A stretch of DNA of 64,000 nt, taken from an uncultured Candidatus Saccharibacteria bacterium. Lineage in GTDB: Bacteria > Patescibacteriota > WWE3 > UBA101185 > UBA10185. Below, in pieces: positions 3,876-32,945 of this stretch (position 1 is its first letter; every line of letters starts with the position of its first letter). Made by a program: the position numbers and the translations under genes. The stretch is taken from positions 69,622-133,621 of the forward strand of contig CAZXUJ010000001.1 of assembly GCA_964643995.1 (NCBI GenBank), written 5' to 3'. The notes under the pieces are model-generated. The model worked only from the letters and a program-made list of their open reading frames with translations, was not told the DNA's origin and did no database searches.

Positions 3876-3941
3876 CTGGAATTAAGTATATAGCGTAACA
3901 GATTTAATTTGCAATTAATTTATGTAATGTATACTTTTTGA

Positions 3942-4445: not shown

Positions 4446-4446
4446 A

Positions 4447-5016
4447 TCAGAAAAGAGATGATTCGTAACGTTTAAGTCTACGTCGTAAGTATTTATATGT
4501 AGGCACTGTTTCACCGACTAAGTCCCAAAATCGTTGCGAATGGTTCATTTCCTTAAGATGACATAGTTCGTGTACAAAAATGTAATCTTGCAGAGCTTCT
4601 TCCAAGTATATTATGCGATAATTAAAACTAAGAGTCCCAGTGTTGGAGCAACTTCCCCATCGAGAGCTTTGATCTCGTACAGTTATTTTCTCATACTTGA
4701 ATTGATAATGCGCATTGAAATATGCCAATCTTTCTTTGGCTAAACGTATAACAGATGCCTTCGCCTCAAGGTATTTTTTACGGTGTATAGTGGGTGTTTT
4801 CCCATCCAAATTCAATTTGTCGAGCTGAGATTGGATCCACAATGTATTTTTGGCAACAAAGCTTTCATAAAAGCTTTCAGAAGTTCTACTAGGAACCGTC
4901 AAAGTTACAACACCTAAAGATGAGACCCTAAGCAACAACTTTTTAGCACGAGGGTTAGCGGTCACTGTGTATCTTAAATATGTATTATTGTTACTTAACA
5001 ATATTTTTTTCTCCAT
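4447..5016 (-). CDS. YgjP-like metal-dependent hydrolase (DUF45 / WLM-SprT-like HExxH)
   Basis: 189 aa with the C-terminal motif FVHELCHLKEMNHSQRFWDLV characteristic of the YgjP/DUF45 family. Confidence 0.7.
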   Translation of the reverse strand: MEKKILLSNNNTYLRYTVTANPRAKKLLLRVSSLGVVTLTVPSRTSESFYESFVAKNTLWIQSQLDKLNLDGKTPTIHRKKYLEAKASVIRLAKERLAYFNAHYQFKYEKITVRDQSSRWGSCSNTGTLSFNYRIIYLEEALQDYIFVHELCHLKEMNHSQRFWDLVGETVPTYKYLRRRLKRYESSLF

Positions 5017-5044
5017 AACAAAAAAGGTCCGGACTAGCCGGACC
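5017..5044 (-). terminator. Rho-independent terminator downstream of the hsp20 gene
   Basis: Hairpin GGTCCGG-actag-CCGGACC (5026-5044) followed on the minus strand by a T-run (A-run 5017-5025 on the plus strand). It lies immediately 3' of the hsp20 stop. Confidence 0.6.
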
Positions 5045-5064
5045 TTACCGTAAGTAATTCAATA

Positions 5065-5481
5065 TTAACTTTTTTTCTTGACAGAGATCTTCTTTGGAAG
5101 ATCTTCATCTGTCTTGGGAACTGTTACGCGAACGATACCATCCTGAACCTCAGCTTCGGCCTTCGAGGCTTGCACGCTTCTTGGTAAGCTTGTTGAGTAT
5201 GTAAAGGATGTTTGACGTGAACTTTTGTATACCACTTTCTTCTTATCTTTTTCCTCCTGGGACTCATCGTGTGACGCACTTATAGTTAAAATATTGCCCT
5301 CAACAGTTACTGCTACCTTTTCTTCGGGAACACCTGGGACCGCTGCTTCTACTACGACAGCATTCTCAGTTTCATATACATCCATCTGAGAACTATCTGA
5401 TAGATCAGGCCACCTAAAAACGTCGTCATCAAAGAAAGACGGCCAAACTGGATACTGTTGCTTCCACTTAATTAAAGCCAT
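5065..5481 (-). CDS. Small heat-shock protein, Hsp20/alpha-crystallin family
   Basis: 138 aa with the alpha-crystallin domain pattern MDVYETENAVVVEAAVPGVPEEKVAVTVEGNILTISA. Confidence 0.85.
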   Translation of the reverse strand: MALIKWKQQYPVWPSFFDDDVFRWPDLSDSSQMDVYETENAVVVEAAVPGVPEEKVAVTVEGNILTISASHDESQEEKDKKKVVYKSSRQTSFTYSTSLPRSVQASKAEAEVQDGIVRVTVPKTDEDLPKKISVKKKS

Positions 5482-5522
5482 AAATAGCCTCCTTTAGTTG
5501 AAATAGATACTAATAGTAACTA

Positions 5523-5549
5523 TTATCAGTCTAGTTAACGGAGTGCTAG
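5523..5549. promoter_or_regulatory. Imperfect CIRCE-like inverted repeat upstream of hsp20
   Basis: TTATCAGTC-N9-GAGTGCTAG; read in the hsp20 transcription direction this is cTAGCACTC-N9-GActGaTAA against the CIRCE consensus TTAGCACTC-N9-GAGTGCTAA (8/9 and 7/9). It sits between hsp20 and galU. Confidence 0.25.
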
Positions 5550-5573
5550 ATGTCAATATGACAATGTATGAAA

Positions 5574-6488
5574 TCAGATTAATAACTCATTGTTAATAAA
5601 GTCGGTTAATTTATCTTTTAAATCCTCTCTCTCCATGGCAAATTTGAGCGATGTCATAAGATAATTTAAAGGGTCTCCTGTTGTTAACCACTCACCTTTA
5701 ATTGGTGGTGCAATTACCTCATTGCCCATTTTTATCAAGTCTGTAATCGCATCAGTTAGCCACAACTCATCATCATTTCCTGTGTGAGCATTTTCAATGT
5801 AATCTACGATGTCATAGTTGAATATGAATCTACCAAACTGGGCCTTGTTGGATGGGGCTTTGTCTCTAGGATATTTTTCACATATTTCAGCTACAGAATA
5901 TGGGTATTCCGATCCTTCTTTGTATCGAACCTGGCCATAGCGGTCGATAACGTCCCACGAAACCTCCTGCACACCCAATACTACCGATGGGCTACGTTCG
6001 TCGAAAGCGTTCATAAGCTGCTTGGTTACAGGGACACCGTTCGACAAGGTCATATCGTCACCAAACATATAGACAAAGGCTTCATCATCATCAATTAAAT
6101 CTTTAACTGCTAAAAGCGGTGATGCATTTCCGTATGGCAAATGATTCTTTTGTCTTACATATATGAAATTGGCCATTTGTGGTATTTGCTGAACTATCTC
6201 AAGATATTTAAGTTTGTTGTGATCTTTAAGATACTGTTCAAGCTCAGAGCGATTATCAAAATAGTCTTCCATGATGTGATTACCTGCACGAGTAACCAAG
6301 ATGATATCGGAAATACCGGAATTAACTGCTTCTTCTACTAAGTAGTGAATAATTGGTTTGTCTATAATGGGTAACATTTCCTTGGGTTGGTTTTTGGTAG
6401 CAGGTAAAAATCTTGTTCCTGTGCCAGCGGCGGCTATAACTGCTTTGGTAATTTTTCCTTTTTGACTCATGGTATCCTTTCTTTTCAA
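5574..6488 (-). CDS. galU: UTP-glucose-1-phosphate uridylyltransferase
   Basis: KAVIAAAGTGTRFLPATKNQPKEMLPIIDKPIIHYLVEEA matches the GalU N-terminal nucleotidyltransferase signature. Confidence 0.88.
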   Translation of the reverse strand: MKRKDTMSQKGKITKAVIAAAGTGTRFLPATKNQPKEMLPIIDKPIIHYLVEEAVNSGISDIILVTRAGNHIMEDYFDNRSELEQYLKDHNKLKYLEIVQQIPQMANFIYVRQKNHLPYGNASPLLAVKDLIDDDEAFVYMFGDDMTLSNGVPVTKQLMNAFDERSPSVVLGVQEVSWDVIDRYGQVRYKEGSEYPYSVAEICEKYPRDKAPSNKAQFGRFIFNYDIVDYIENAHTGNDDELWLTDAITDLIKMGNEVIAPPIKGEWLTTGDPLNYLMTSLKFAMEREDLKDKLTDFINNELLI

Positions 6489-10807: not shown

Positions 10808-12997
10808 TTATTCGTATCTTAATGCATCAAGTGCAGAAATTTTACGTGATCTTTTTGCAGGGAATATGCCTGTTCCAATACCTACGAAAAAGGATAATAT
10901 CATTATCACGGCTATAAATGAAAATGGGATATGCGAGATATTTATAAATCCCTGACCTTTTGCAACTGAAAAAACTGTGAGAAGTAGACTCGCTGCCTTT
11001 CCAAAGACTAACCCAACAAGTAAACCTGAAATACCCGCACAAAAACCCATAATGATAGACTCTGTTAAAAATAGCTCCTGGACCTCCATAGTGGTCATAC
11101 CCATGGCTTTCATTAAACCAACCTCACGAGAACGCTCAAGGAGTGAGACAGTTAAGGTATTGAACATACCTAGGGATGCTACAGCGAGCGCGATCATACC
11201 CATAACACCAAGAACCAAGCGTATAGTGGCAAACAGACTCGTAATTTGTTCAACCGTATCGACTACCGAGGTAGTAGCAAAACCAGCGGCTTCTATCTGC
11301 TTGCGAATAATATCGAGTGATTCTTGATCATTTGAAACTACCTTAAGCTGAGAATAATTCACAATTCCTAAAGAGCGTAGGTCTATAAAGGGGACATAAA
11401 ATACTGGCGCAGTATCATCTGGCGTTACACCAACAATTGTATACTCGGTAGATTCAGACTCAGTACGCTTTTTTGATTCGGCAAGTAGATTTGTGGGTAT
11501 TACAAATGAAGCACTGAATGTTTTACCAACCGCATCGCCTTCGGTGATGTTTAAAATTTTCAACATAGCACGGTTAACAACAGCCTGACGTAGCGCATTG
11601 TTGCTAATTACAACAGTGTTAACTTCGTCTTCGTCGGAAACAGAGGTTTCATCTACAATTTCGACCCACTCACCATCCTCTACAACAACAGTTTGATCTT
11701 GTGCAACTGGCACTGGATTTGTTTTTGCTGGTTCCTCAGCAACAATTGCCTGGGCTAGGCTCGTTGAAGTTCCTAAAACCTTACCGGGAAGGTTAACGGG
11801 TGTAACTGAAAGATTGATTTCGGCTATGTAGCCTTGTTCTTGCACCAAATCGCTATTGTCATCAAGTTTAGGTAAATACTTACCATCTATACAGCCAATA
11901 TCAGCATCGGTGCATGTGGTTTCTTCCCAAAGATAAGCTTTGGTTTTTACCCAGCGACCCAAAACTGCACCATCAGAATCGGTCGCAAACACTCCATTGG
12001 AATCGTCAGATAAATATGTGGCACCTGCGACATAAACACCATTTTGCAAACCTTCTACCCTCTTCGTATATCCTAACAACTCGGAGTTAGGGCTAGGTTC
12101 TTTACGGACACGAACCCAAGTTTCAGGTAGGATTTCAAATTCAATAGGTGAAAGCTCTTCTAAGTAGGTGTACTGAACTCGGATATCTTGAGTACCTGCT
12201 ACTTCAGGTGGCTCTACAAGTTCCGGCACATAACTTTCAAGACTAACCGAAATTTCATTGCTATCAAATATGGCACCCTCAATTGGTTTTATAGCCGATT
12301 TTTCCAGATAACCGGTTGTAACACCATAAACCGCCATGTCGGAAACAGAATTTTGGTAATTTACTCTTCCAACGACAGCTATCAAGGGGTAAACATCCGC
12401 TACATTTGCATAACTCTTGATATCAGAGAGTGTTTTGTCATCAATACGTATTCTTGAACCAGCCTGCGGTGCAATGTCAACCTGTCTCAGCTCGTCTAAG
12501 CGAGCAACACGACCAATAACTAGTCTTTGAAGTCCATAACCCACCGAAACAAGAAAAACTATTGCACCAATACCAATGGCTACACCGCCAATGGTTATCA
12601 ACGTACGGGTTTTTTTCACTTGCATATTTCTTATAGCTAACCTGATAATATCCAACTTAGAGATAGTTTCGCCTCTGTTACGATCAAAAACACTCACGAA
12701 CTTCACATAAAATCTTGAATAGTTACCTTGAATGTTGCTTAATGTTGGTTTCGGAACAAAGGGAATTCTATGAAGATATTTAACAACCAAAGAATTAACC
12801 ACATATATAAGAACCAACATATGAAATGAGAAGAACTCACCAGAGAAATACACCAATGATTTTACAAGCGAAACTAGCGCAGGTTTGAGAGAACGTAACT
12901 TCTTGGGAATGTTAGTCACATCGAATCTTAATTTCATTGTTGTATTAATTATTAGCTTTTTTTGAAAAAAATCTAGGTTGTTTTTTCTTAGGCCCAA
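10808..12997 (-). CDS. ABC transporter permease, FtsX/MacB type with an enlarged extracytoplasmic domain
   Basis: 729 aa with an N-terminal TM segment, a roughly 420-aa periplasmic domain and a C-terminal FtsX 3-TM bundle (GLMKAMGMTTMEVQELFLTESIIMGFCAGISGLLVGLVFG). It overlaps the upstream ATPase gene by 53 nt. Confidence 0.8.
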   Translation of the reverse strand: MGLRKNNLDFFQKKLIINTTMKLRFDVTNIPKKLRSLKPALVSLVKSLVYFSGEFFSFHMLVLIYVVNSLVVKYLHRIPFVPKPTLSNIQGNYSRFYVKFVSVFDRNRGETISKLDIIRLAIRNMQVKKTRTLITIGGVAIGIGAIVFLVSVGYGLQRLVIGRVARLDELRQVDIAPQAGSRIRIDDKTLSDIKSYANVADVYPLIAVVGRVNYQNSVSDMAVYGVTTGYLEKSAIKPIEGAIFDSNEISVSLESYVPELVEPPEVAGTQDIRVQYTYLEELSPIEFEILPETWVRVRKEPSPNSELLGYTKRVEGLQNGVYVAGATYLSDDSNGVFATDSDGAVLGRWVKTKAYLWEETTCTDADIGCIDGKYLPKLDDNSDLVQEQGYIAEINLSVTPVNLPGKVLGTSTSLAQAIVAEEPAKTNPVPVAQDQTVVVEDGEWVEIVDETSVSDEDEVNTVVISNNALRQAVVNRAMLKILNITEGDAVGKTFSASFVIPTNLLAESKKRTESESTEYTIVGVTPDDTAPVFYVPFIDLRSLGIVNYSQLKVVSNDQESLDIIRKQIEAAGFATTSVVDTVEQITSLFATIRLVLGVMGMIALAVASLGMFNTLTVSLLERSREVGLMKAMGMTTMEVQELFLTESIIMGFCAGISGLLVGLVFGKAASLLLTVFSVAKGQGFINISHIPFSFIAVIMILSFFVGIGTGIFPAKRSRKISALDALRYE

Positions 12998-13868
12998 TTT
13001 CTGGCGTAGGTACAGGCTGCGTTGGCATAGGCGGGTTAGGCGGTAAGGGGGTTGGAATTGGAGTTGGGGGGCTTACGGGTTCCGGGGCTATCACTGGCAC
13101 TTCAGCCGCAGTTTCAATCACCAAAGATTCTCCGCGTTTTGTAGGTACCGACTGTTCTAGGACGGCTTTCTGATCACCCACAACTACGGACTCAACCTTA
13201 CCATCAAAAATCTTAACCACACGTTTTGCATACTTTATATATTCAAGGTCGTGGGTAACCATCAAGACCGTTTTACCGCTCTCATTAAGGCTACTTAGGA
13301 GTTGCATTAGGTTTTTACCGGATTCAAAGTCGAGGTTACCTGTAGGCTCATCAGCAATTATAATCTCAGGGTCCGTAACAAGGGCGCGTGCTAAGGCTAC
13401 TTTCTGCTGTTGACCTCCTGAGAGCTCAGTTGGAAAATAATTGACCCAGTTGCTCATTCCCATATTTAGTATTGAATGCCAAGCTTTTTTAATTGCCTCA
13501 CCTTTTTCTACACCTAGTAGTGACAAAGGAAAAGCTACATTTTCAACAACACTTAATGACTTAACCCAGTTAGGTTGTTGATAAACCATCCCTACATGCT
13601 TCTTACGGAAAGAGGATCTAGCATCTTCGTTCGGGAGTTCATATAGACTGACTCCTAAACATGTAACAGACCCAACGGATGGAACTTCCAAGCCGAGGAG
13701 CATATGTAAAAGTGTAGATTTTCCAGAACCGGAAGGACCAATGATAACTGTGAAATCACCCTTATTAACTTCAAAACTCATACCTTTGATAACTGGAATA
13801 TGTTGATTCCCTACCTTATAAGATTTTTCAAGGTTCTCAACCTTTATTACAACATTGGTTTCAGCCAT
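12945..13868 (-). CDS. ABC transporter ATP-binding protein (MacB/LolD-like) with a proline-rich C-terminal tail
   Basis: Walker A GPSGSGKST, signature LSGGQQQKVALARAL, Walker B IIIADEPTGNLD. The C-terminal tail is PEPVSPPTPIPTPLPPNPPMPTQPVPTP. The start overlaps the stop of the giant gene by 1 nt. Confidence 0.9.
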   Translation of the reverse strand: MAETNVVIKVENLEKSYKVGNQHIPVIKGMSFEVNKGDFTVIIGPSGSGKSTLLHMLLGLEVPSVGSVTCLGVSLYELPNEDARSSFRKKHVGMVYQQPNWVKSLSVVENVAFPLSLLGVEKGEAIKKAWHSILNMGMSNWVNYFPTELSGGQQQKVALARALVTDPEIIIADEPTGNLDFESGKNLMQLLSSLNESGKTVLMVTHDLEYIKYAKRVVKIFDGKVESVVVGDQKAVLEQSVPTKRGESLVIETAAEVPVIAPEPVSPPTPIPTPLPPNPPMPTQPVPTPEIGPKKKQPRFFSKKANN

Positions 13869-16800
13869 TATTTAAGCCCTCCCAAGAAACCAAAGACCTG
13901 ACTCAAGTTGGTTATAACAAGATTAAGAGCATTATCAGAAGCTTTAGGCGTGATGGTAACAGTATCAACAGAGTTTCCAACATTATTGGCTTTGTCGTTG
14001 GAAATTGCCCTCAGATGGTAAACCTTTGACGGATTTAGTCCAGATATTACTACCGCATGATTAAATGTTAAATTACTATCTTCTTGGCTTTTCTGTGAAT
14101 AGGTTGATCCAGTACCCTCGCCAAATTCGACTTGAGATGTAGCAGGCTCGTCGGTGTCCCAGCTTATGACAAGTTGCGCTGTCGCTTCTTTATCTTGGGA
14201 TACAACAACACTTCCCTCAATACTCAAGTTTGATATCGCTGGGGGTCTGGTGTCTGTTGCAGTCGTGATACGTTGTATATCGCTAGAAGCCTCATTACCA
14301 GCTTTATCACGTCCCTTAACCGTCAACAAATAAGTTGTTTCTGGTAGTAACCCTTTAATCTGGAGACGATGTTGTCCCTTAACCAATTCAACATTTACTT
14401 CATCTCTAGCATCAGCAGTATTACCCTCAGGGTAGTAAGTTAAAATCGACGAGACCTCTGTATTGGTATTCCATGTCACTAAAACTGACGGTTGTGCGGC
14501 TCCCCTCACCTGCTGAATTCTCACATTGTCGATTTTTGGACGAGGAAGAGTTTCAAAGGTTAATACACTTCCATCATACTCATCATCCTCAGGATCAAGG
14601 GTATTGATCTTATAATAGTATTTTGTACCGTCGGTAAGATTTTCAAGAGTAGTATTATATGTGGTTTCTGAGGTCGATGTGGCAAGTTCTAACAAACTGC
14701 CAGAAGCTCCAGATAAGCCATAATAAATTTTTACCGATGTAGCATCGGTAACTGTATATTGTAGGGTAACTCTATCGATGCCTACATACTTTGCCGAAGG
14801 ATCTGTAACCGTAGGAGCAGGAGCTGTTTCGAAAGTGAATTCATCACTTAGTCCGGTGTTACCATCTTCATCCGTCCATTTGGCAATCGCATAGTAACTG
14901 GTACCTGGACTTAGATTTGAAAGTGCTATCTCATGGGCAGTGACTTGATCAGAGTTCGAAGGCTCTTCATCAAAATAATCCCCCGAACTAGTACCATATT
15001 GTATTTTTGAATCACTTACGCGATCGGTTGACCAAGTGATTGTAGCTTTCTTCGTAGTGATTCCAGTAACCTCAGGTTCTGAATCAAGCGTAGCAGCTTC
15101 GGTAAATCTACCTGTAGGAAGTAACTCGACAGAGCTGGTAAATGCACCGCAATTATCAACACTATCGCAGGCACGGACTTTATAATAGTATGTTATCTCT
15201 TCAAGACTAGTATCAATGTAGGCTGAACCGGTAGTGGTAGCTAAGGAGCTATAAGTTGAGTCATCCTCTGAACGATAAATCTCGTAATAATCTATACCTG
15301 AACCTACATCAGTTGGAGCAGTCCAAGAAAGTGCTAATCTCCAAGATTCAGTACTTTTTATTGAGACATCAGAAATCTCTAAGTTAAGAGGAATACCTGG
15401 AGCTGAAGTGTTAGCTGTAAATGAAACGCTTGTGTAAGAACCATAATTGATAGCACTACCATAATCACTGCCATTTCTGGCCGCCAAATAAAGTGTGTTT
15501 AATCCGACTTGAGTAGCAAAGGAACTTGCCGAAAGAGTAGTATCTCCAGCACTTGTATAAGTACAAGTGGAGGAAGAAGGTAAAGTGTTAACTGTATAAC
15601 AGTAAGTCAAAGCATCTTCAGTACCAGAGTAACTTGATGGCGCGTCCCAAGAAAAGGCGAATGAATTGGATGTGTTTGTACTCGGTGTAACTTGTAAAAA
15701 TTGTGGTGCTGAAGGACCATCACCTGCATAATAATAGGTTGCTTGCAGTGGTGTTGCTGAGTAATTGCCTGCCGTATCCACAACCCTTAGATAAAATGTG
15801 TTTGCGTCAGTTTGATATGCCGCATCGTCAATTTCGATTGAAGTTAGCGCTGTAGTAGCAGACCAATCGCTTAGTGCACCAGATGCGGCACCAGTTTTGT
15901 ATTGATAACCAGCTACACCAGACCCACTGTCGGAGGCTATACCCTCACCACTTGAAGGCCATGAAAACGTAAACGAATTTGAGGCGGCATAACCAGATGG
16001 TGTAACAGTAACCGTGCTTGGGTTACTTGGGGAAGTATTGTCAAATTTGTAAATAAAGGCGGCATATGTCGTACTTACATTTTGTGCATTGTCTTTGGCT
16101 TGTATTCTTAAATAATAGGTACTTCCACTTACGAGACTACTTGCGGTATATGTGGAGCCGGCTTGAAATGAACCTGCCGTTGACGGAACTGCAGAGCTAT
16201 CAGTTCCAAAATATACAAAATATCCAGCTAGCCCAGCTCCTGCATCACTCGCGCCGCTCCAAGAGAAATAGGGTCCTGTATGAGTGTACCAAGTGTTTGT
16301 CGTAAGACTAGATCCACCAAATGCACTAAGTGCCGTGATGCTACTTGGGGCGGTAGGGTTAGTTGTATCAGAATTTGCCTCAACTATTACCTCATTGACA
16401 GTGACTTGTTGAGTGCCGTCACCATCTAAAATTGCTTGCCATTTTATACCAGACGAGGATATTGGGAGAGTGGGAATATTTGTGTTTATATCAGCTTCCG
16501 TATTTGCCTGACTAGTAGAGGCAGATGTTTCCCACGAGTCACTATCCCAGTATTTCCATGTGCTACCACCGTCGGTTGAAAGTCTATACATTACAGTACC
16601 ACCATTTAGTGTTTCTGTAGTGACAAAACCTGCAAAACTGGCAATATCCTCAGTAAATACAGCAGTAGTGTTTGAAACAGTTTGTGCCGACGCAGAATAC
16701 GGTGTCGTTGTAAAGGATGATCTGGCAGACGTGCTGATTCTAAGTTCGTCCAGTGTCCCATTAAAGTAACCTTGGGCAACACCACTGGAAGTACTTCCAT

Positions 16801-19744
16801 ATGTCGTACCCACTAACAAGCTTTTTGTAGTATTTGGTATAGATAAAGAGGCACTACCTGAATTATCAAGAACACCATCAATGTATATTTTCATCGTGCT
16901 ACCGTCATAAGTTGCTGCTATGTGGTGCCAACTGGTGTTTTGAGTCGCCGTAGTAGACTGTAGATATCCATTGTTTCCATAAGACCATACTGCCGCATCA
17001 ACATTTGCGGACTCGCCCAAACCTGCAAATAGTTTTCCTTGAAAAACAGCTAACGAGTGTACACTTTCGGACGCATTAATATCCCAGCTTGAGTTTATTG
17101 CATCTCCTCCGATCTGACTCCATGATGAACCGTCATATCTCCAAACTTCTGACTCTCCAGCAGTTGTTCCAACGCCAGCAAAGACATAACCATTGTATGA
17201 AGCTAAAGAGCGCACCCTTTCGTAGGTTCCTGAGGTCCAACTACTATTTAAATCGTCACCACCTACTTGTGACCAAGTACTACCATTCCATTTATATACA
17301 TCAGCGTCTCCCGCCGTAGTACCTAAACCTACATACAGTTCATTGTTGTGAATTATCATTGAATCCACCTGCTCGTGAAGTGAAGCCCAGCTAGAATTGG
17401 TACTGTCGCCACCTATTTTAGTCCATGCGGTACCATTCCAACTGTAAACCTCAGCGTCACCAGCACTACTACCAATACCAGCGTATAGAAGGTTATTGTA
17501 CCCAACCATGCTATGAACTGTTTCATAGTTAGTGTTCCAGCTCGAGTTAGTTCCGTCACCTCCGATTTTTGTCCATGCCGTACCGTTCCAACGCCAAACT
17601 TCAGCCTCGGTGGCAGTAAGTCCCAAGCCAGCATACAAATAACCATCGTAGGCCGCCATACTCTGGACGTTTTCAAAACCGGTTGTCCATCCTGAATTTA
17701 AACTATCACCACCAACTTGAGTCCATGTTGAGCCATTGTATCGCCAAACCTCGGCATCGTTAGCCGTAGATCCTAAACCGGCATATAGATTTCCACCATA
17801 ACTCTGAAGTGAAAAAACTGTTTCAAACGTACCCGCGGCCCAGCTACTATTGACTCCTTGTCCACCAACAATGGTCCAAGTGCTGCCATCGTACTCAAGT
17901 ACCATAGCATTACCCGCTACTGTATAACCCGTACCAGCATAAAGTTTGCCGTTGTGGGTTTTCAATGCTTCTACACTTTGAAGGTTGTAAAAACCCCAGC
18001 TTTTATTAATGTAGTTGCCACCAAACCTTGTCCATGCACTTCCGTTCCAACTCCACATTTCACCACTTGCACCCGTACCTGTAAGACCTGCATATAAGGT
18101 ACTACCTGAATATAAAAGAGTGTTAACATGGGTATGCGTGTTTGTAAAACCAGAGTTTATTGCATCACCACCAATTTTGGTCCAAGTCGTTCCATTCCAA
18201 CTCCATACCTCGTTATCACCCGCGGTATTACCCAAACCAGCATAAACAGTTGATCCGGTACTTGCCAAACTGTAAACAGCCTCGTATGAACTAGAATCCC
18301 AGCTCGAGTTCACAGTATCGCCGCCAATTTTTGACCATGTCCCACTCGTAAAACGCCAAACTTCGGCCTCACCTGCGGTTGTTCCAATACCTGCATATAA
18401 ATCTCCGCTTAGGTAAGTCATGCTTAGAACATATTCATAGGTGGTATTCCAGCTTGAATTTGTTCCATCACCACCAATTTTTGTCCACGCACTACCGTTC
18501 CAACGCCAAATTTCAGCGTCGGTTGCACTAGCACCTAACCCTGCATAAACATTAGTACCGTCATTTATAAGGGAATATACCTGTTCAAACCCAGTGGTCC
18601 AACCTGAATTCAAGCTATCTCCACCTATTTGAGTCCAGGCACTGCCATTCCAACGCCATACCTCAGCATCGTTAGCTGTAGTACCAATGCCCGCATACAA
18701 GTTTGACCCCATGTAAGTTAAACTAGCTACTTGCTCATATGTTCCAACTGCCCAACTCGAATTAACAGCATCACCGCCGATTTTCGTCCAATCAGTGCAG
18801 TTAGACGTAGTATCGCAACTCCAGACCTCAGCATCACCTGCAGTAGTACCAAGTCCTGCGTAGAGCAAAGTTCCGTTGGTAGCCAAGGATAAAACACTTT
18901 CAAAAGTTTGGTCCGCCCAGCTAGAATTATCGCCAGCACCACCTATTTGAGACCAAACTGTACCATCCCATTTCCAAACCTCAGCATCACCAACAGCGTT
19001 ACCTAACCCAACATAGATGTCTGAACCTACAGTAACCGAGGAATGTACAGCAAACTTACCGTTTAGGTCCCAGCTGTTGTCAATGTCTATACCAGCATTT
19101 TGCGTCCACTCTGTTGCACTAGAACTGGCTAACTCATATGTAATTTTTCCGGTCTCATTGTCGTAGTAAAGTTTATAGTCACCCTTGTCTACTATTCCTT
19201 GAGCCTGATCCGCGCTACCTGCTGATAAACTTGTGCCAAACTTAGTCCAAGCTTCAATAGAATTGACTTGCCCTAGGGAGATTGATGCAGAATCAGTTAC
19301 GGATATTTTGGAAGTGTCTCCATCAAGGGTTAGGCCATTGTTTAGATTACCAGTAACCCATGATGGAGCTGTGGCCGTACCATCATTAGCATTGCTAGAG
19401 GAGTCATCGACTGTAGTACCAGAAGATTCGTCAAGGTGAAAAAGTAATGCAGTGTCTGAGTCAGACGTATAGTTTTGAACCTTTAAGCGTGCAGTACTGC
19501 TTGATACCTCAACTGCGGTTGAATCGGATAAAGTGTAATCTCCAGCACTTGCAAAATCCCAAGTATAATCAACATCCCCCGCAGCAAATATATGCTGAAT
19601 GTATGAAGAAAATAACAAAGCAGATGTAAGAATAAAAACGACAAACACATGAAAAACATGTTTGCTTTTTTTGATACGCTTTGTAAATACTCCGTTGTAT
19701 ATTTGTTTCAAATGTGTCACATATTTGGGCATAGCTTCTCTCAT
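13868..19744 (-). CDS. Giant (1958 aa) secreted/surface protein: signal-anchor, LamG/ConA-like domain, 14 beta-propeller-like repeats, second LamG-like domain, array of fibronectin-III-like domains
   Basis: N-terminal hydrophobic anchor. Laminin-G-like pattern ALLFHLDESSGTTVDDSS and later LDELRISTSARS. Fourteen repeats of about 55 aa of the form LYAGLG.TAGDAEVW.WNG..W..IGGD..NSSW. C-terminal repeated beta-sandwich modules (FN3-like, Y.Y.V.A.D..GN.S). The true start may be M5 (MPKYV) at 19732. Confidence 0.8.
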   Translation of the reverse strand: MREAMPKYVTHLKQIYNGVFTKRIKKSKHVFHVFVVFILTSALLFSSYIQHIFAAGDVDYTWDFASAGDYTLSDSTAVEVSSSTARLKVQNYTSDSDTALLFHLDESSGTTVDDSSSNANDGTATAPSWVTGNLNNGLTLDGDTSKISVTDSASISLGQVNSIEAWTKFGTSLSAGSADQAQGIVDKGDYKLYYDNETGKITYELASSSATEWTQNAGIDIDNSWDLNGKFAVHSSVTVGSDIYVGLGNAVGDAEVWKWDGTVWSQIGGAGDNSSWADQTFESVLSLATNGTLLYAGLGTTAGDAEVWSCDTTSNCTDWTKIGGDAVNSSWAVGTYEQVASLTYMGSNLYAGIGTTANDAEVWRWNGSAWTQIGGDSLNSGWTTGFEQVYSLINDGTNVYAGLGASATDAEIWRWNGSAWTKIGGDGTNSSWNTTYEYVLSMTYLSGDLYAGIGTTAGEAEVWRFTSGTWSKIGGDTVNSSWDSSSYEAVYSLASTGSTVYAGLGNTAGDNEVWSWNGTTWTKIGGDAINSGFTNTHTHVNTLLYSGSTLYAGLTGTGASGEMWSWNGSAWTRFGGNYINKSWGFYNLQSVEALKTHNGKLYAGTGYTVAGNAMVLEYDGSTWTIVGGQGVNSSWAAGTFETVFSLQSYGGNLYAGLGSTANDAEVWRYNGSTWTQVGGDSLNSGWTTGFENVQSMAAYDGYLYAGLGLTATEAEVWRWNGTAWTKIGGDGTNSSWNTNYETVHSMVGYNNLLYAGIGSSAGDAEVYSWNGTAWTKIGGDSTNSSWASLHEQVDSMIIHNNELYVGLGTTAGDADVYKWNGSTWSQVGGDDLNSSWTSGTYERVRSLASYNGYVFAGVGTTAGESEVWRYDGSSWSQIGGDAINSSWDINASESVHSLAVFQGKLFAGLGESANVDAAVWSYGNNGYLQSTTATQNTSWHHIAATYDGSTMKIYIDGVLDNSGSASLSIPNTTKSLLVGTTYGSTSSGVAQGYFNGTLDELRISTSARSSFTTTPYSASAQTVSNTTAVFTEDIASFAGFVTTETLNGGTVMYRLSTDGGSTWKYWDSDSWETSASTSQANTEADINTNIPTLPISSSGIKWQAILDGDGTQQVTVNEVIVEANSDTTNPTAPSSITALSAFGGSSLTTNTWYTHTGPYFSWSGASDAGAGLAGYFVYFGTDSSAVPSTAGSFQAGSTYTASSLVSGSTYYLRIQAKDNAQNVSTTYAAFIYKFDNTSPSNPSTVTVTPSGYAASNSFTFSWPSSGEGIASDSGSGVAGYQYKTGAASGALSDWSATTALTSIEIDDAAYQTDANTFYLRVVDTAGNYSATPLQATYYYAGDGPSAPQFLQVTPSTNTSNSFAFSWDAPSSYSGTEDALTYCYTVNTLPSSSTCTYTSAGDTTLSASSFATQVGLNTLYLAARNGSDYGSAINYGSYTSVSFTANTSAPGIPLNLEISDVSIKSTESWRLALSWTAPTDVGSGIDYYEIYRSEDDSTYSSLATTTGSAYIDTSLEEITYYYKVRACDSVDNCGAFTSSVELLPTGRFTEAATLDSEPEVTGITTKKATITWSTDRVSDSKIQYGTSSGDYFDEEPSNSDQVTAHEIALSNLSPGTSYYAIAKWTDEDGNTGLSDEFTFETAPAPTVTDPSAKYVGIDRVTLQYTVTDATSVKIYYGLSGASGSLLELATSTSETTYNTTLENLTDGTKYYYKINTLDPEDDEYDGSVLTFETLPRPKIDNVRIQQVRGAAQPSVLVTWNTNTEVSSILTYYPEGNTADARDEVNVELVKGQHRLQIKGLLPETTYLLTVKGRDKAGNEASSDIQRITTATDTRPPAISNLSIEGSVVVSQDKEATAQLVISWDTDEPATSQVEFGEGTGSTYSQKSQEDSNLTFNHAVVISGLNPSKVYHLRAISNDKANNVGNSVDTVTITPKASDNALNLVITNLSQVFGFLGGLK
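17030..19045 (-). repeat. Intragenic tandem repeats (about 165 nt x 14) encoding the propeller blades of the giant protein
   Basis: Recurrent DNA words (e.g. ccaacgccaaa(c/t)ttcagc at about 17590, 18499 and 18650) and 14 protein-level YAGLG...AEVW.WNG...IGGD...NSSW units. Confidence 0.6.
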
Positions 19745-19757
19745 ATTGACAAGGGCC

Positions 19758-19786
19758 TATATATTATTCTAGAGCCTAAAAGTCAA
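19758..19786 (-). promoter_or_regulatory. Candidate sigma70-like promoter for the giant-protein/ABC operon
   Basis: On the minus strand: TTGACT - 17 nt - TATATA, 13 nt upstream of the annotated ATG. This favours the downstream M5 start. Confidence 0.3.
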
Positions 19787-19871
19787 AATTTGATCATATA
19801 TAAAGTATATTACAAAAAAGAGAATAAATGTATAAAATTACTAGCAAGTTTACTATTGATAGCTATGGTAA

Positions 19872-22070
19872 TTGAGTCTACTATTAACTGAAATGAGCAT
19901 ACGTAAAAAACTCTTTGTCTTTATTTTATTTGTCGGTTTAGTATCAGGGGGTGTAGTTGTAATAGTATCCGAAACTTTTATCAGACTTAATGTGGAAGAG
20001 ATAGAAACAAAGACTGCCGAAGAAAGTGTTTCACAGGTACTCGGGGTTTTAGAAGAAAAGATTAACAGGGTCGATACATTTACAACAGACTATGCCGGAT
20101 GGGATGATACTTATTATTTTATTCAATATCCAAATGAAGAGTACATAGAATCCAATATACTGACTGAAACCTTGGTTACTACTAGGATAGGTTTCATGAT
20201 CTATGTAAACAAATCAGGACAAATCGTAGAGGATAAAACTGTGGATCTAGGATTAGGTATCGGCGTTTTTACCCCCGAAAGTCTTATCGCGGAAGTGGAA
20301 AAGGGGGGGGATTTGATACACCACACAAACACTAATGAAGTTAGAAAAGGGATACTCGCCTTAGCTGATGGAACTCGCGTAATCATATCCTCCAGGCCAA
20401 TCTTGACGAGTGCAAAGGAAGGACCAATAATGGGCACTTTGATCTTTGGCGAATTCCTGGATGACTACACCTTACATGATATTGAAAACAAAACCAAGAG
20501 GAAAGTAACCATACATAGTACAGATTCAACTGACACTAAAGTACAAGACATAATAGGCAAAATCAGTGAAAACAGCTCAACCGTTGTGCTGACTCCTGAC
20601 AATAATACACTGCAAGGGTATGCCCTTATCAAAGATATCTATGGGAACCCAACAATGCTCTTACAAGTTGAGCTACCGAGAGATTATTACGTACAAAGCC
20701 GCAAGCAATCGATTTCATTTATTGTTAGTATAATTGCCATAGGGTTGTTGTCATACTTAGCAGGGATTGTCTACTTTGAAAATTTGGTTCTGAAGCCATT
20801 GAAAAACATTACGAGAGACCTCGCAAAGATAAGAGCAAAAAAAGATTCGGCATTGAGAGTTGAGATGACAGGTTCAAATGAGATGAAAACGCTGGCCACA
20901 CATATAAATGAGATGCTAGAGAGTTTATCAGAATATGAGATCAAGCTGGTAAACATTAACGAAACACTCAAGAAGGAAAACAAGGATATTGAATCAATCG
21001 TAAAGCAAAAAACAGCAGATTTGAAAGAAGAGAGAGCACGGCTATTGTCAACATTTAATTACATCCCAAATGGACTCTGCATTACTAACACTAGACTTGA
21101 AATAGCGCTCACAAACCCGGGAATGTATAAAATCCTAAACCTAAGTGACTCAGAGCACTCACTTACATTTGATAAATTACAATCAGTACTAAAAGATTCC
21201 CTAAATATTAAGGAACTTTGTGATGACTGTCTGGAGTATGGAAAGCCAATTAGTCAAGAGATACGATATCAGGAACGAGTGTTTGACCTTTATATAGCGA
21301 CTATAAAGTCACTAGACAAGGCAGAAAAGTTTGGACTTATAATTTTGCTTACAGATATGACTCAGATTAGACTACATGAAAGAGCTCAGGATGAATTAAT
21401 AAACGTACTTTCCCATGAATTAAGAACACCGCTATCTGTGATAAAAGGATACGTAAGTATGCTGCAAAAAGCACCAATAGTTGATGAGAGTGTCAAAAAG
21501 GAGCTAAGTGGAATAGATGTAGCTAACCAACACCTTATTGAATTGGTAAACAATGTGCTAACGTTGTACAAATTGGAACAAAACAAGCTTATTTTCGATG
21601 AAGAGGAGATTGTAATCGCTAAGTTACTCAATGAAACACTAGAAAACCTCGAACCGGAGCATAAATACAAAGACCTAAAAATAAATCAGACGATACAAGA
21701 TGAAAATATAAAAGTTTTAGCAGATAAAGAAAAACTAAGACTTGTAGTAAGCAATGTGCTATTGAATGCCATTAAATATACCGAACATGGAACAATAGAT
21801 GTTTCTTCTGAGATAGATGGGGATAAGTTAAAAGTTAAGGTAAAAGACACGGGAATTGGTGTAGCAAAAAAGAACCAGGCGATGCTGTTTAAAAAATTTC
21901 AAAGAGCTGGGGATACTATACACGTAAAAGAGAACCTTTCGGAAAAAGGAATGGGACTTTATATTTCTAAGTTGATAATGGAAAAAATGAACGGGGATTT
22001 GTACCTGGAATTTTCGGACCTTGGCGCTGGTAGCATATTCGTATTTACAGTAAGGTTGGTAATTGAGTAA
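19872..22070 (+). CDS. Membrane sensor histidine kinase (extracytoplasmic sensor domain, PAS-like, HisKA, HATPase_c)
   Basis: N-terminal TM and a periplasmic domain of about 250 aa with a second TM. H-box LSHELRTPLSVIKGY. ATPase G-boxes DTGIGV and GMGLYISKLIMEKMNGDL. Confidence 0.85.
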   Translation: MSLLLTEMSIRKKLFVFILFVGLVSGGVVVIVSETFIRLNVEEIETKTAEESVSQVLGVLEEKINRVDTFTTDYAGWDDTYYFIQYPNEEYIESNILTETLVTTRIGFMIYVNKSGQIVEDKTVDLGLGIGVFTPESLIAEVEKGGDLIHHTNTNEVRKGILALADGTRVIISSRPILTSAKEGPIMGTLIFGEFLDDYTLHDIENKTKRKVTIHSTDSTDTKVQDIIGKISENSSTVVLTPDNNTLQGYALIKDIYGNPTMLLQVELPRDYYVQSRKQSISFIVSIIAIGLLSYLAGIVYFENLVLKPLKNITRDLAKIRAKKDSALRVEMTGSNEMKTLATHINEMLESLSEYEIKLVNINETLKKENKDIESIVKQKTADLKEERARLLSTFNYIPNGLCITNTRLEIALTNPGMYKILNLSDSEHSLTFDKLQSVLKDSLNIKELCDDCLEYGKPISQEIRYQERVFDLYIATIKSLDKAEKFGLIILLTDMTQIRLHERAQDELINVLSHELRTPLSVIKGYVSMLQKAPIVDESVKKELSGIDVANQHLIELVNNVLTLYKLEQNKLIFDEEEIVIAKLLNETLENLEPEHKYKDLKINQTIQDENIKVLADKEKLRLVVSNVLLNAIKYTEHGTIDVSSEIDGDKLKVKVKDTGIGVAKKNQAMLFKKFQRAGDTIHVKENLSEKGMGLYISKLIMEKMNGDLYLEFSDLGAGSIFVFTVRLVIE

Positions 22071-22079
22071 AATGGTTAT

Positions 22080-22475
22080 ATGGCAAAAATTTTGATTATT
22101 GAAGATGACCTAGCGGTTGCAGGTATATATCAGGACTTACTAGAAAAAGATGACTACAAGGTTATTGTTTGCAGTAATGGTGCCGACGGCTTAAGTGCTG
22201 CAAGGAGCGAAAAACCAGATCTGATACTTCTGGATGTTATGATGCCAAACATGGACGGCATAGAGGTTCTAAGAAGACTAAAGGCAGATAACGATACTGA
22301 CCTTATACCCGTAATAGTCTTAACGAATGTAGGTGTAGATGAGGTGCAGAACGAAGCACTGAGCTTGGGTGCAGCAAGATATATTGTAAAGACTGATGTA
22401 TCGTACCCACGTTTTGTTGAGCAGATTAAAGATTACGTTACAAAAAGTCCTCCGGAACAAGCAATAAATAACTAA
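22080..22475 (+). CDS. Single-domain response regulator (CheY-like receiver only)
   Basis: 131 aa with KILIIEDD...LILLDVMMPNMDG...VIVLTNVG, a receiver with conserved Asp residues and no output domain. Confidence 0.85.
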   Translation: MAKILIIEDDLAVAGIYQDLLEKDDYKVIVCSNGADGLSAARSEKPDLILLDVMMPNMDGIEVLRRLKADNDTDLIPVIVLTNVGVDEVQNEALSLGAARYIVKTDVSYPRFVEQIKDYVTKSPPEQAINN

Positions 22476-30257: not shown

Positions 30258-30882
30258 AGAGGCAATTGCAAAAAAATACAACTCTGAACTAGAAGGAAAC
30301 CCTTACGGATCTATGGCTACCATAAAAGGGTTTATAAAAGGAGGAACTAGAGTATTGGACGTGGGATGCGCAGGTGGATATTTAGGTAAACACTTCCCTA
30401 ACAATGAATTTTATGGAATTGATGGCAATGAGGTTGCGGTGAAAGAAGCAAAAAAGTCATATAAAGAGGTAGCACTAGTGGATCTTAACAAAATTCCCAA
30501 AGATTTGGTTTTCAGTGAAAAGTTTGATTATGTGATTTTCGCCGATGTTCTGGAACATCTCCTGCATCCAAAGGAAATATTGCAACACTTTAGAAACTAC
30601 CTCAAGGATGGAGGGCAAATAATAGTTTCGGTTCCAAATGTAGCGTTATGGAGGGTTAGGTTAAACCTATTACTGGGCAGATTTGAATACACTGATTATG
30701 GTGTTTTAGATAGAACTCATGTACATTTGTATACATTCAAAAGTACAAGAGAGCTTTTGCAATCTGCAGGACTTAGGGTCAAATACTCTACAGGTGCGGC
30801 CTATGCACTGGGACCCCTAGCTAAACTGCCATCACCTGCCAAGGAATTATTTAGCGTGCACGTTATAATGGTTGCGGAATGA
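30250..30882 (+). CDS. Class I SAM-dependent methyltransferase
   Basis: VLDVGCAGGYLG motif I and FDYVIFADVLEHLLHP. Confidence 0.75.
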   Translation: MYKEAIAKKYNSELEGNPYGSMATIKGFIKGGTRVLDVGCAGGYLGKHFPNNEFYGIDGNEVAVKEAKKSYKEVALVDLNKIPKDLVFSEKFDYVIFADVLEHLLHPKEILQHFRNYLKDGGQIIVSVPNVALWRVRLNLLLGRFEYTDYGVLDRTHVHLYTFKSTRELLQSAGLRVKYSTGAAYALGPLAKLPSPAKELFSVHVIMVAE

Positions 30883-32945
30883 TTAAGGGCTTTATAAAAA
30901 ATCACTACATATTAATATTACTTATACTAATACATGTTGTTACACATCACACATGGATTTTTAACACTGACTATCTGACTTATGGTGATGCAAGAGTATA
31001 TCCCCCACAAATGCAGGCGGATTTAATTCAAGATTCCTTAAAAACTTATGCAACTGGCATTGACTTGGGATCCTTCGAATTAAGCGGAGGTGCCAGCATA
31101 ATTAAATTGGTTCACGGACTACTTGGAAAAATAGGTATTTACTATAATCTTTCCTTCAGGGTTATTTACATGTACCCATATGTATTCTTAGCTCCTGTTG
31201 CAATATACCTACTAACATCAAGATTTATAAAAAACAAATTCGGACTGTTTTGTGCTGGATTAGTATATCTATTTAACACTTACTTCTTGGTACTTCAAAC
31301 AGCCGGGGTAACCATGTTACTGGCAAATATGTGGGGCACTTTTATGCTTGTCTATTACTACAAACTATTCATGGAGAAGAGGTCTGTCTTTAACTATTTA
31401 ATGATTGTTCTTATGTCCCTGCTTGCCTGTATTTACGAATTCAGAATATTCTATCTCGCAATAATTCTGTGTAGCATGCTTGTTATATATAAATTCATTT
31501 TTATAGAACGCAAATGGTCTGACCTGTTTCTCCATGCCAGTATAGGCATAGTTACATTGATTCTAAACTCGTTTTGGTTTTTGCCAGTTATCCTATCAGG
31601 ACAACTTCTGGAGAACAGGCTTTTTTCCAGAGGACTTTTTGGGAGTGGCTACTTTGATTTATTCAGCGCCTTTAATCTTTTTCATAGATTCTGGACTGGA
31701 GGAGCAATAGCTCAGTTTGTAAATCAACCAATACCTATGCTTTTTTGGGCAGTGCCGATTTGTGTAATAATAGCCATCTACAAAAATGAAAAAAACAAGT
31801 GGGCACAATTTTTTGCTGTAATTGCCATATTGGGTGTCTTCTTAACTAAACAAGAAGATTTACCCTTCCCGCACATATATTCGTGGTTATACAATAATTT
31901 CCCTGGGTTTAACGCCTTCAGAGAAGCCTCAAAATTTTACTTTATTACAGCAATAGGATATTCAGTACTGATAGGTTATTTTATGCAGTGGCTATGGGAA
32001 ACTAAATTTACGAACCTGTATCAAAGATATGCACGGGTGCTAGCAAGCATACTTATTGCTGGTATATTTCTTTATAACTCAATTCCCTTGGTTACATTGG
32101 AATTAGGATCACTGTTTATTCCAAGACATATTCCACAGGAATACAAAGTGTACAACGAATTTATAATAAGTCAGGACGATTCCTTCAGAACTCTTTGGGT
32201 GCCCTCTGAATCTAAGTGGGGCTACTACTCAAACAGCAAACCGCGCCTTGGATTTGGACTTATGAGTACAGTAAATTGGGAAAACTTAAAAAACAGGCCC
32301 GACTATGTACAATACGATCTTCCAAAGAATATTATTGCCAACTTATTAATGCAAACGTTTTCGGATAACCTCATAGACGCACACTCGATAAAATATGTTG
32401 TCGTACCAACATATGATTTAGAAAATGACGACAATATTTATATCCATTTTGGGAATGACAGGAACTTCTATCTAAATTTGGTTTCAAATTTAGGCTACCT
32501 GAAACCATTAGATATTGGCACAAGAGACTTAAAAGTATTTCGAAATGACAACTACAAACCACGAATTTACTTAACGAACGAAAAGGAAACCCTTGCAACA
32601 CGTATCCCATATGAAGAAGTTGAGTACACGCTGATTAGTCCAACAGAATATATAATAAAACTTAAAGACCTAACAACACCAGTTTATTTAAATTTTTCAG
32701 AAAAGTTCGATTCTGGCTGGGCACTAAAAGATAATAACTACTTTTTGGATGAGCTAGATCACTTTTCAAACGAGTATAACCTAAACACCTTCGTACTTGA
32801 CGAAAAGTATGAAAATAGAGAACTGACTCTGTATTACAAACCACAAGCATACTTCGATGCCGGAATACTTGTATCTCTAGGAGCACTAGCTACACTGATA
32901 ACAAGTGCGTTTGGCATAGTTATTTTCAGCAAAATAAGGAAATGA
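30879..32945 (+). CDS. Large polytopic membrane protein, putative GT-C-fold glycosyltransferase/polymerase
   Basis: 688 aa with about 12 N-terminal TM helices and a 270-aa C-terminal extracytoplasmic domain. ATGA overlap with its neighbours inside the glycan operon. The assignment is structural inference only. Confidence 0.4.
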   Translation: MIKGFIKNHYILILLILIHVVTHHTWIFNTDYLTYGDARVYPPQMQADLIQDSLKTYATGIDLGSFELSGGASIIKLVHGLLGKIGIYYNLSFRVIYMYPYVFLAPVAIYLLTSRFIKNKFGLFCAGLVYLFNTYFLVLQTAGVTMLLANMWGTFMLVYYYKLFMEKRSVFNYLMIVLMSLLACIYEFRIFYLAIILCSMLVIYKFIFIERKWSDLFLHASIGIVTLILNSFWFLPVILSGQLLENRLFSRGLFGSGYFDLFSAFNLFHRFWTGGAIAQFVNQPIPMLFWAVPICVIIAIYKNEKNKWAQFFAVIAILGVFLTKQEDLPFPHIYSWLYNNFPGFNAFREASKFYFITAIGYSVLIGYFMQWLWETKFTNLYQRYARVLASILIAGIFLYNSIPLVTLELGSLFIPRHIPQEYKVYNEFIISQDDSFRTLWVPSESKWGYYSNSKPRLGFGLMSTVNWENLKNRPDYVQYDLPKNIIANLLMQTFSDNLIDAHSIKYVVVPTYDLENDDNIYIHFGNDRNFYLNLVSNLGYLKPLDIGTRDLKVFRNDNYKPRIYLTNEKETLATRIPYEEVEYTLISPTEYIIKLKDLTTPVYLNFSEKFDSGWALKDNNYFLDELDHFSNEYNLNTFVLDEKYENRELTLYYKPQAYFDAGILVSLGALATLITSAFGIVIFSKIRK

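Follow-up and report, generated by a model that had tools for sequence, protein, structure and literature searches.

What fold a long tandem-repeat array encodes, which family it belongs to and what the protein that carries it may do are the questions raised by a locus in a 64,000-nucleotide stretch of DNA from an uncultured Candidatus Saccharibacteria bacterium (contig CAZXUJ010000001.1, positions 69,622 to 133,621; the window in what follows is this whole stretch). The array lies within one very large open reading frame (ORF), here called the giant gene, of which one copy was found within the 64-kb window and per locus. An initial annotation, made from the DNA letters and translations, had described the array as fourteen tandem repeats forming a probable double beta-propeller of unrecognised family. 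Structure modelling shows a segment predicted to encode two tandem seven-bladed beta-propellers, as follows.

13868..19744, minus strand: giant gene, a single ORF of 1958 amino acids (aa), from the ORF list and its translation
17984..19057, minus strand: propeller A, blades 1-7 (aa 230-587), from an AlphaFold2 model of aa 226-590 and Foldseek
16979..17983, minus strand: propeller B, blades 8-14 (aa 588-922), blade 14 without its fourth strand, from segmentation, AlphaFold2 and Foldseek

The encoded protein comprises a probable signal peptide, a LamG domain split by the two propellers, a middle domain, an FN3 stalk and a conserved C-terminal peptide.

The repeats are real and lie far beyond chance. 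Motifs of the LYAGLG type ([LVI][YF][AV]G[LIV]) occur 14 times, spread over aa 243-905, and a hidden Markov model (HMM) of the blade built from the units gives 14 matches at aa 230-942. The computed consensus, xVxSLxxxxGxLYAGLGTTAGDAEVWRWNGSAWTKIGGDxxNSSW, agrees with the repeat string of the initial annotation, and the array was found where it had been placed, on the minus strand and inside ORF 13868..19744. The repeat-bearing segment extends from ~16979 to 19117, slightly wider than the limits of 17030-19045 first given. Fourteen also stands as the number of blades, with the qualification that segmentation yields 13 complete units and a 14th unit that ends after the third strand and has no fourth; a separate N-terminal quarter-unit (aa 210-229), the truncated unit 14 at the C-terminal side and the 13 complete units together make up the 14 blades. 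The complete units are 50-52 aa long with blade 2 (55 aa) as the exception; the measured period is 50-51 aa (150-153 nt), and the ~55 aa proposed earlier are found in blade 2 only. The strong conservation at the DNA level that had been stated was not observed either. Between units, pairwise identity averages 48.5% for protein and 54.7% for DNA; over 15000-21000 Tandem Repeats Finder reported nothing, the units being too diverged as DNA. Families of 11 copies with a spacing of 150/153 nt are detected at the DNA level. The strands of each blade follow the order V.SL..Y.G / LYAGLG / AEVWRW / WTKIGG, and then a short helical turn, NSSW.

Sequons of the N-x-S/T type occur two per blade (WNGS/T and NSSW), with 22 across the propeller region (16979-19057, minus strand). 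They are probably structural turns; they could also serve as glycosylation sites, several of the loci described below having glycosyltransferase-rich neighbourhoods.

To model the whole head we ran AlphaFold2 on aa 56-1030 with 91 homologs. The model has a mean predicted local distance difference test score (pLDDT) of 82.4, with values above 90 over most of units 1-7, and a predicted template modelling score (pTM) of 0.62. Each unit forms four beta-strands, and within the array pLDDT is low at the blade 7/8 junction only. Blades 1-7 folded alone (aa 226-590) reached a pLDDT of 95.2 and a pTM of 0.94 with exactly 28 strands (7x4), and this part is therefore predicted to be a self-contained, closed seven-bladed propeller. 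Foldseek returned 938 matches of propeller A in the PDB at E<=1e-3; the 50 matches listed are almost all beta-propellers, among them WD40, Kelch, GH74 and LGI1 proteins, with query-normalised TM-scores (TMq) of 0.66 or less. The best matches of the whole model are tandem double-propeller proteins over 760-900 aligned columns (TM 0.25-0.50), namely Elp2, UTP proteins of the SSU processome, PorZ, the GH74 enzyme OXG-RCBH and sensor domains of Bacteroides hybrid two-component systems.

The 7+7 division is supported in two further ways. Orthologs were collected with one genome per species, which gave 71 loci, and across 63 orthologs the most divergent blades are 7, 8 and 14, that is, the blade that ends the first ring and those that begin and end the second. 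Independent support comes from the wider family, in which array sizes peak at 6-7 and 14 (one array has 21 units). The double propeller proposed in the initial annotation thus holds, through the four strands per unit, the pTM of blades 1-7 alone and the double-propeller matches of Foldseek. We also observed that blades 2, 4 and 6 resemble one another (56-57%) more than they do blades 3 and 5, and that blades 3, 9 and 10 form a group as well. These likenesses hint at an older history of two-blade or six-blade duplication beneath the present layout.

To which family do the blades belong? No Pfam or NCBIfam model, Kelch and other propeller families included, matched the native repeats (aa 221-928), even at E<=10, and in this respect the family is unrecognised, as had been stated. 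Relatives outside the window provide the connection. More distant homologs of the segment carry Kelch, Rax2 and DUF5122 matches on homologous repeats. A strong Kelch protein, P0112 (Pfam PF24681 at 251 bits, with nine Kelch_3 and eight Kelch_4 repeats), aligns with the window segment by BLASTP at E=5e-24 with the repeats in register, so that LFGG..DTWEWNGSSWTNV of P0112 is paired with LYAGLG..AEVWRWNGSAWTKIGG of the window. Comparison of the 13-blade profile with a profile of 19 Kelch blades by hhalign gave a probability of 96.2% (E=2e-9). Against the PDB, the family profile matched the Kelch domain of KLHDC10 at E=5e-5 and the EPTP repeats of LGI1 at E 0.04-0.3. Larger family profiles were required to reach KLHDC10; phmmer and the single-blade profile returned only non-significant LGI1 EPTP matches among PDB sequences. 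A sevenfold family consensus matched Pfam Rax2 (PF12768) at E=3.5e-12 and Kelch_3 at E=1.5e-4, scores that are inflated by the sevenfold repetition; its 22.3 bits against Kelch_3 stand beside a cut-off of 22, and the native protein reaches no such threshold. A confident Kelch profile match, which the initial annotation had named as the result that would speak against an unrecognised family, was thus obtained indirectly, via P0112, the blade comparison by hhalign and KLHDC10.

At the residue level the Kelch signature consists of four hydrophobic residues and Gly-Gly, then a conserved Tyr/Trp and a Trp; in the blade, LYAGLG stands in place of h-h-h-h-GG, with one extra residue between the glycines, and the aromatics of EVW.W...W align. 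The unit size, within the 44-56 aa of Kelch-type repeats, and the four-stranded blade of a closed propeller agree with a Kelch assignment. WD40 repeats found no Pfam match in the array and their GH...WD signature is absent from the consensus; WD40 structures match at the level of the generic fold (TMq ~0.57). We conclude from these comparisons that the repeats are classed as a divergent Kelch-type subfamily without a database model of its own, and not as a new fold class. A single-blade profile found 7300 clusters at E<=1e-3 (1579 at <=1e-10) among 1.84 billion representatives, so the subfamily is sizeable, though no Pfam or NCBIfam model detects its member in the window. Some relatives are giant proteins themselves (P0121-P0124, P0147 and P0156; 2300-5700 aa, 21 to ~60 units, with 61 matched stretches in one protein of 5722 aa), and from these unit numbers they would be chains of three or more propellers.

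The sequences on either side of the array had been taken for two ConA/LamG-like domains. They contain the following features.

19118..19453, minus strand: N-terminal half of a LamG domain (Laminin_G_3), aa ~98-209, from the test with joined halves; AlphaFold2 strands with pLDDT ~80-89
19058..19117, minus strand: quarter-blade, aa 210-229, ATEWTQNAGIDIDNSWDLNG, which matches strand 4 and the NSSW turn of a blade
16718..16978, minus strand: C-terminal half of the LamG domain, aa 923-1009, from a partial Laminin_G_2 match and the test with joined halves

In the native protein only positions 45-124 of the Laminin_G_2 profile were matched, at aa 929-1004 and with 22 bits, below the cut-off, and the N-terminal half alone had no Pfam match. 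When aa 216-925 were removed in silico, Laminin_G_3 matched at E=4.9e-20 (72.7 bits) over profile positions 1-146 of 151, across the junction; this joined query includes the C-terminal flank, aa 926-1030. By these profile matches the flanks are to be read as one LamG (concanavalin-A-like) beta-sandwich with the propeller pair inserted in a mid-domain loop. The two flanking domains are thereby reduced to a single LamG that is covered end to end by Laminin_G_3 only after the insertion has been taken out.

The propeller insertion is absent from a related protein. In a Saccharimonas metagenome-assembled genome (MAG; locus L038), a paralogous cassette (175-6394, minus strand) stands back to back with the propeller cassette in divergent orientation. 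Its protein (1427 aa) has DUF2341, an intact Laminin_G_3 (profile positions 3-150 of 151) and the same FN3 / Pur_ac_phosph_N tail as the giant protein, and an ABC (ATP-binding cassette) ATPase and an FtsX permease follow downstream. Judged from its domain content, this paralog is the same system without the propeller insertion. BLASTP between the split LamG and the intact LamG of L038 was not significant (E=0.85); the C-terminal motifs of the two align in order.

The quarter-blade (ATEWTQNAGIDIDNSW, aa 210-229) directly precedes blade 1 and corresponds to the part that is absent from the truncated blade 14. In the orthologs the blade HMM detects a partial extra unit ~26 aa before blade 1, and the W and the SWD.nG motif of the quarter-blade are conserved across 63 orthologs. 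AlphaFold2 predicts a strand here (W213-A217) with low pLDDT. The quarter-blade probably completes blade 14 by velcro closure, with the ends of the insertion brought together. Since blade 14 would be completed in this way, LamG would contain propeller B and propeller B would contain propeller A, and we infer a nested topology, LamG > propeller B > propeller A.

Outside the head, the giant protein has four more parts.

19580..19744, minus strand: N-terminal basic and hydrophobic segment, aa 1-55, ending in FAAGD, from hydrophobicity and ortholog N-termini
16205..16717, minus strand: middle domain (MID) with no family assignment, aa ~1010-1180, at the same position in the ortholog loci that extend that far
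13955..16204, minus strand: FN3 / Pur_ac_phosph_N stalk of about eight beta-sandwich domains, aa ~1181-1930, from Pfam
13871..13954, minus strand: conserved C-terminal peptide ...ASDNALNLVITNLSQVFGFLGGLK, with ortholog consensus ASDSVLTIILNSLQKVFGF

The N-terminal segment holds the single hydrophobic 19-aa window of the whole protein (aa 27-55), after a basic stretch, and the ...FAAGD motif is common to the few ortholog N-termini displayed. It probably acts as a Sec signal peptide that would be cut at a signal peptidase I site. The middle domain is conserved in all orthologs whose loci extend that far and had no Pfam match. In the stalk, Pfam fn3 matched five stretches (E=3e-19) and Pur_ac_phosph_N four (E=6e-14). 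The C-terminal peptide, ~20 aa with the pattern ASD[SN].L[TN][IL][IV].N.L..[IV]FG[FL] in orthologs L006-L075, is moderately amphipathic and stands at the extreme C-terminus of 45 of the 57 fused orthologs listed. It could be a short amphipathic helix and is a candidate anchor or docking element.

Downstream of the giant gene on the same strand are the two genes of an ABC system.

12945..13868, minus strand: ABC ATPase of the LolD/FtsE/MacB (type VII) kind, from Pfam ABC_tran
10808..12997, minus strand: MacB/LolC/FtsX-like permease with an extracytoplasmic MacB_PCD domain, from Pfam MacB_PCD and FtsX

The best NCBIfam models are LolD, DarD, FtsE and MacB for the ATPase and the MacB/LolC/FtsX models for the permease, all below their equivalog cut-offs. 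An ATPase of this type and a permease with one large extracytoplasmic domain and an FtsX membrane domain fit the description of type VII ABC systems. These systems are defined by their extracytoplasmic partner and characteristically do mechanical work on it rather than transport a substrate (PMC12646458). At the junction, the stop of the giant gene overlaps the start of the ATPase gene (TAATG), an arrangement that shows the two as predicted translationally coupled genes.

The cassette is conserved over the 71 loci, almost all of them assigned by their labels to Saccharibacteria/Saccharimonadia, WWE3 or Patescibacteria. Its parts keep the order LamG-N / 14 blades / LamG-C / FN3 stalk / ABC ATPase / MacB-FtsX permease. 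Of 64 full orthologs, 63 have 14 blades, and in 58 of 61 a single ORF covers both the propellers and the FN3 tail. The downstream sequence was long enough for assessment at 55 loci, and at 53 of these the ABC ATPase and FtsX permease come immediately after the giant gene. The orthologs are 46-80% identical to the window protein, and each blade is closest to its own positional ortholog. From the constant blade number and this positional orthology the array must be regarded as ancient and fixed, with neither concerted evolution nor copy-number variation; the variation in repeat number among strains that the initial annotation had thought worth looking for is not what the orthologs display.

Complete cassettes were also found in MAGs labelled Gammaproteobacteria, Bdellovibrionales, Pseudomonadales and Bacillota, including one contig of 1.57 Mb (loci L010, L017, L023, L029, L053, L059, L061, L068 and L074). 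These labels probably reflect taxonomic mislabelling or chimeric bins. In L069 a second ABC + FtsX pair lies just upstream, and, by gene content, the tail + ABC module seems to have been reused with different heads (L038 and L069). At another locus, L003 (5235-8283; protein P0025), a short ORF upstream contains the LamG N-terminal half; after it comes an array of 13 blades joined directly to an FtsX transmembrane domain, and no ABC gene was found nearby. P0025 arose either as a natural fusion, with a topology that mimics MacB, or by a deletion into the permease gene; we did not use it as a Rosetta stone fusion, a deletion from the propeller end to the middle of the permease explaining it equally well.

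The same repeat family is used by phages. Phage tail proteins with an N-terminal part of Phage-tail_3 and Rcc01698_C (phrog_4271, tail protein) carry 7-8 blades as a distal module, and these blades are 44-52% identical to those of the window. Two such loci are L005 (10001-12925), in a tail gene cluster of the siphovirus or gene transfer agent type, and L077 (7989-10523), on an IMG/VR contig. The coverage of these tail proteins by PHROGs stops short of the distal propeller part. Phage tail-fibre-like proteins are among the best matches in a viral structure library (TMq up to 0.69); a search of the window propeller against viral contigs found nothing. The phage contigs have 47-52% GC against 38% here, and these phages therefore probably infect other hosts. 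Indirectly, and with its main support from this usage in phages, the propeller may be seen as a surface-recognition module.

What, then, does the protein do? It is probably part of a real cell-surface system that binds something on a cell surface, and the putative role of carbohydrate-binding adhesin, as suggested in the initial annotation, is plausible. More specifically, we give even chances to a reading in which the head of a surface protein binds a ligand and is partnered with the type VII ABC system. The protein would be exported by Sec and, after signal-peptide cleavage, become an extracytoplasmic surface protein. The LamG and double-propeller head would be the ligand-binding part; its target would most likely be a glycan or surface polymer, either of a second cell or of the cell's own envelope, and the FN3 array would form the stalk. 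The ABC system would act as the membrane partner that holds the giant protein, perhaps via the C-terminal peptide; alternatively, it might pass ATP-driven conformational changes on to the giant protein. Other type VII systems (FtsEX-EnvC/PcsB, LolCDE-LolA and YbbAP-TesA) act on partner proteins in such ways. A bolder version, which we regard as speculative and doubtful, is a Patescibacteria-specific type VII ABC machine of a kind not described before. In it a ~2000-aa surface protein with a triply nested head would be held and driven by a mechanotransducer of the MacB/FtsX type, and cytoplasmic ATP hydrolysis would control its binding to, or release from, the surface of another cell, as an energised adhesin for epibiosis in environmental Saccharibacteria and WWE3.

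Several observations weigh against a ligand-binding head partnered with the ABC system. The giant protein is linked to the ABC genes by gene adjacency only; L065 (WWE3) is without adjacent ABC genes, and in L059 they lie ~3 kb further downstream, past a two-component system. The residues that are conserved most strongly are those of the repeat consensus and may have a structural role only, so that no binding surface could be picked out. Velcro pairing rests on low-confidence regions of the model, as does the relative orientation of the two propellers (whole-model pTM 0.62). With 46-80% identity over ~60 species and a fixed architecture, the protein resembles a housekeeping component of the envelope more than it does a host-specific adhesin that evolves fast. 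Such conservation speaks for a housekeeping role in the envelope, the phage usage for recognition of another cell. Furthermore, the cultivated oral Saccharibacterium Southlakia apparently lacks the cassette (its annotation table has no PF13385 or PF16656), and the cassette is therefore not required for epibiosis in general. The essential Southlakia genes SEML1_0890/0891 (annotated fibronectin III and VCBS lectin-like) were considered as orthologs and rejected; their products are of 195 and 565 aa, with a lysozyme-like domain and an FG-GAP propeller.

Two other readings of a surface role have to be weighed, and we consider both unlikely. The giant protein may be a plain surface lectin or adhesin that binds a glycan of the host or of a neighbour, with the ABC/FtsX pair an independent exporter (e.g., of peptides or lipids) that is merely co-transcribed. 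Both LamG and propellers are modules typically used for binding, phage tail proteins carry the same propeller, large lectin/FN3/propeller surface proteins are encoded in Candidate Phyla Radiation (CPR) genomes (PMC3812714), and the two loci with absent or displaced ABC genes would be expected of an independent exporter. An exporter of this kind is harder to reconcile with the position of the ABC + FtsX genes, immediately downstream in 53 of 55 loci whose genomes have diverged deeply, with the stop/start overlap, with the paralogous cassette, which has another head and keeps the tail, ABC ATPase and FtsX permease, and with the usual action of type VII ABC systems through a partner protein. A structural component of the envelope, S-layer-like and engaged in self-assembly or in attachment to the cell's own wall polysaccharide, is improbable to a similar degree. 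It would account for one copy per locus with fixed architecture and 46-80% identity over ~60 species, for blades that have each been conserved since before the radiation and for the glycosyltransferase or polysaccharide-synthesis genes beside several loci; S-layer proteins of archaea include propellers, and glycosylated S-layers are attributed to CPR cells (PMC3812714). S-layer proteins, however, are not known to need a type VII ABC system, and the presence of this repeat on phage tail tips suggests that foreign surfaces are recognised.

Enzymatic activity and phase variation carry still less weight. A GH74-like glycoside hydrolase, in which two propellers form the substrate cleft as in xyloglucanases, is very improbable. 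The highest query-normalised TM-scores for the single propeller (0.60-0.66) belong to GH74 enzymes, which are also among the whole-model matches, but this similarity is generic to propellers (13-17% identity, root-mean-square deviation of 5-16 Å, whole-model TM 0.27-0.33). Moreover, there is no Pfam BNR or GH match, the sequence affinity is to Kelch and not to Asp-box repeats, and among the ortholog-conserved residues, at the sequence level, no blade-specific acidic pair stands out. Tandem repeats in a surface protein could also suggest a contingency locus, whose copy number shifts by slippage or recombination to vary an adhesin. This is effectively excluded by the DNA identity of ~55% between units, the blank result of Tandem Repeats Finder, the exactly 14 units in 63 of 64 orthologs and the closeness of blades to their positional orthologs.

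The surroundings of the giant gene are those of an ordinary chromosomal stretch (38% GC, with LeuRS, TyrRS, Clp ATPase, PolA and a polysaccharide-synthesis cluster). On its upstream side the giant gene faces a two-component system.

19872..22475, plus strand: CHASE4-HAMP histidine kinase and response regulator, from Pfam, divergent from the giant gene

The same arrangement is seen in the closest locus, L006 (5426-7991), and a histidine kinase and/or response regulator lies within 9 kb in about a quarter of the loci. The pair is a possible regulator of the giant gene, with a partial association. Elsewhere in the window, three consecutive ORFs of 688, 576 and 695 aa (30879-37116, plus strand) have no Pfam match, one of them being weakly MmpA-like by NCBIfam; they lie in the polysaccharide-synthesis / glycosyltransferase cluster (~26-39 kb).

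Patescibacteria account for a large part of the diversity of bacteria and presumably live attached to other cells, and to our knowledge the characterised proteins of their surface are few. Studies in oral Saccharibacteria have dealt with propeller-bearing pilins and FG-GAP proteins, which are different proteins from the giant protein. A cassette conserved in ~70 species-level genomes is a concrete candidate for studies of cell-cell or envelope interaction. What is new about it is its nested architecture and the conserved coupling with an ABC system of the MacB/FtsX type. The propeller does not represent a new fold class, nor is the array a variable locus; the repeat family is one that current domain databases miss and that also serves phages as a tail-tip module. 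In the literature we found generic mentions only of lectin/FN3/propeller surface proteins in CPR genomes (PMC3812714) and nothing on this cassette.

We compared the cassette with the known systems that share its parts. With FtsEX-EnvC/PcsB, LolCDE-LolA, MacAB and YbbAP-TesA it has in common the LolD/FtsE/MacB-like ATPase and the MacB_PCD/FtsX permease. A ~2000-aa protein of LamG, propellers and FN3 domains is unlike any known type VII partner, and the link here comes from gene adjacency. The phage tail proteins (PF13550 and PF23666) carry a single propeller without LamG on a virion tail scaffold, unlike the window protein. Two consecutive seven-bladed rings per chain, as in the window protein, are found in extracytoplasmic proteins that handle glycans (GH74 xyloglucanases, PorZ of type IX secretion and the Bacteroides BT4663 and BT3049 sensors) and in eukaryotic Elp2/UTP proteins, none of which has a sequence relationship to the window protein or is inserted in a LamG domain.

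Among single propellers, the EPTP/EAR propeller of LGI1 (5y2z, 8hpy), a metazoan secreted protein, shares units of ~50 aa and seven blades (Foldseek TMq 0.57-0.58); its sequence resemblance is weak, confined to the strand 2-3 region and non-significant (E 0.04-0.3), weaker than that of Kelch. The Rax2 C-terminal propeller (PF12768) and the DUF5122 delta-60 repeats (PF17164) are found on more distant relatives, with the native window protein below every threshold; we know of no function for the bacterial Rax2/DUF5122 repeats. The closest known propellers are those of the Kelch type (Kelch_3 and Kelch_4, galactose oxidase central domain, PF24681; KLHDC10, 9d8p). They share the ~50-aa unit, the four-stranded blade and an in-register motif in which a hydrophobic run and G(L)G are followed by EVW.W-NG-..W. 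The differences lie in the GG doublet of Kelch against LYAGLG here and in the Pro/Arg positions of Kelch against the IGGD..NSSW turn. In its architecture the window protein is further set apart from Kelch propellers as a predicted tandem pair of seven-bladed rings, nested in a LamG domain of an extracytoplasmic protein of Patescibacteria.

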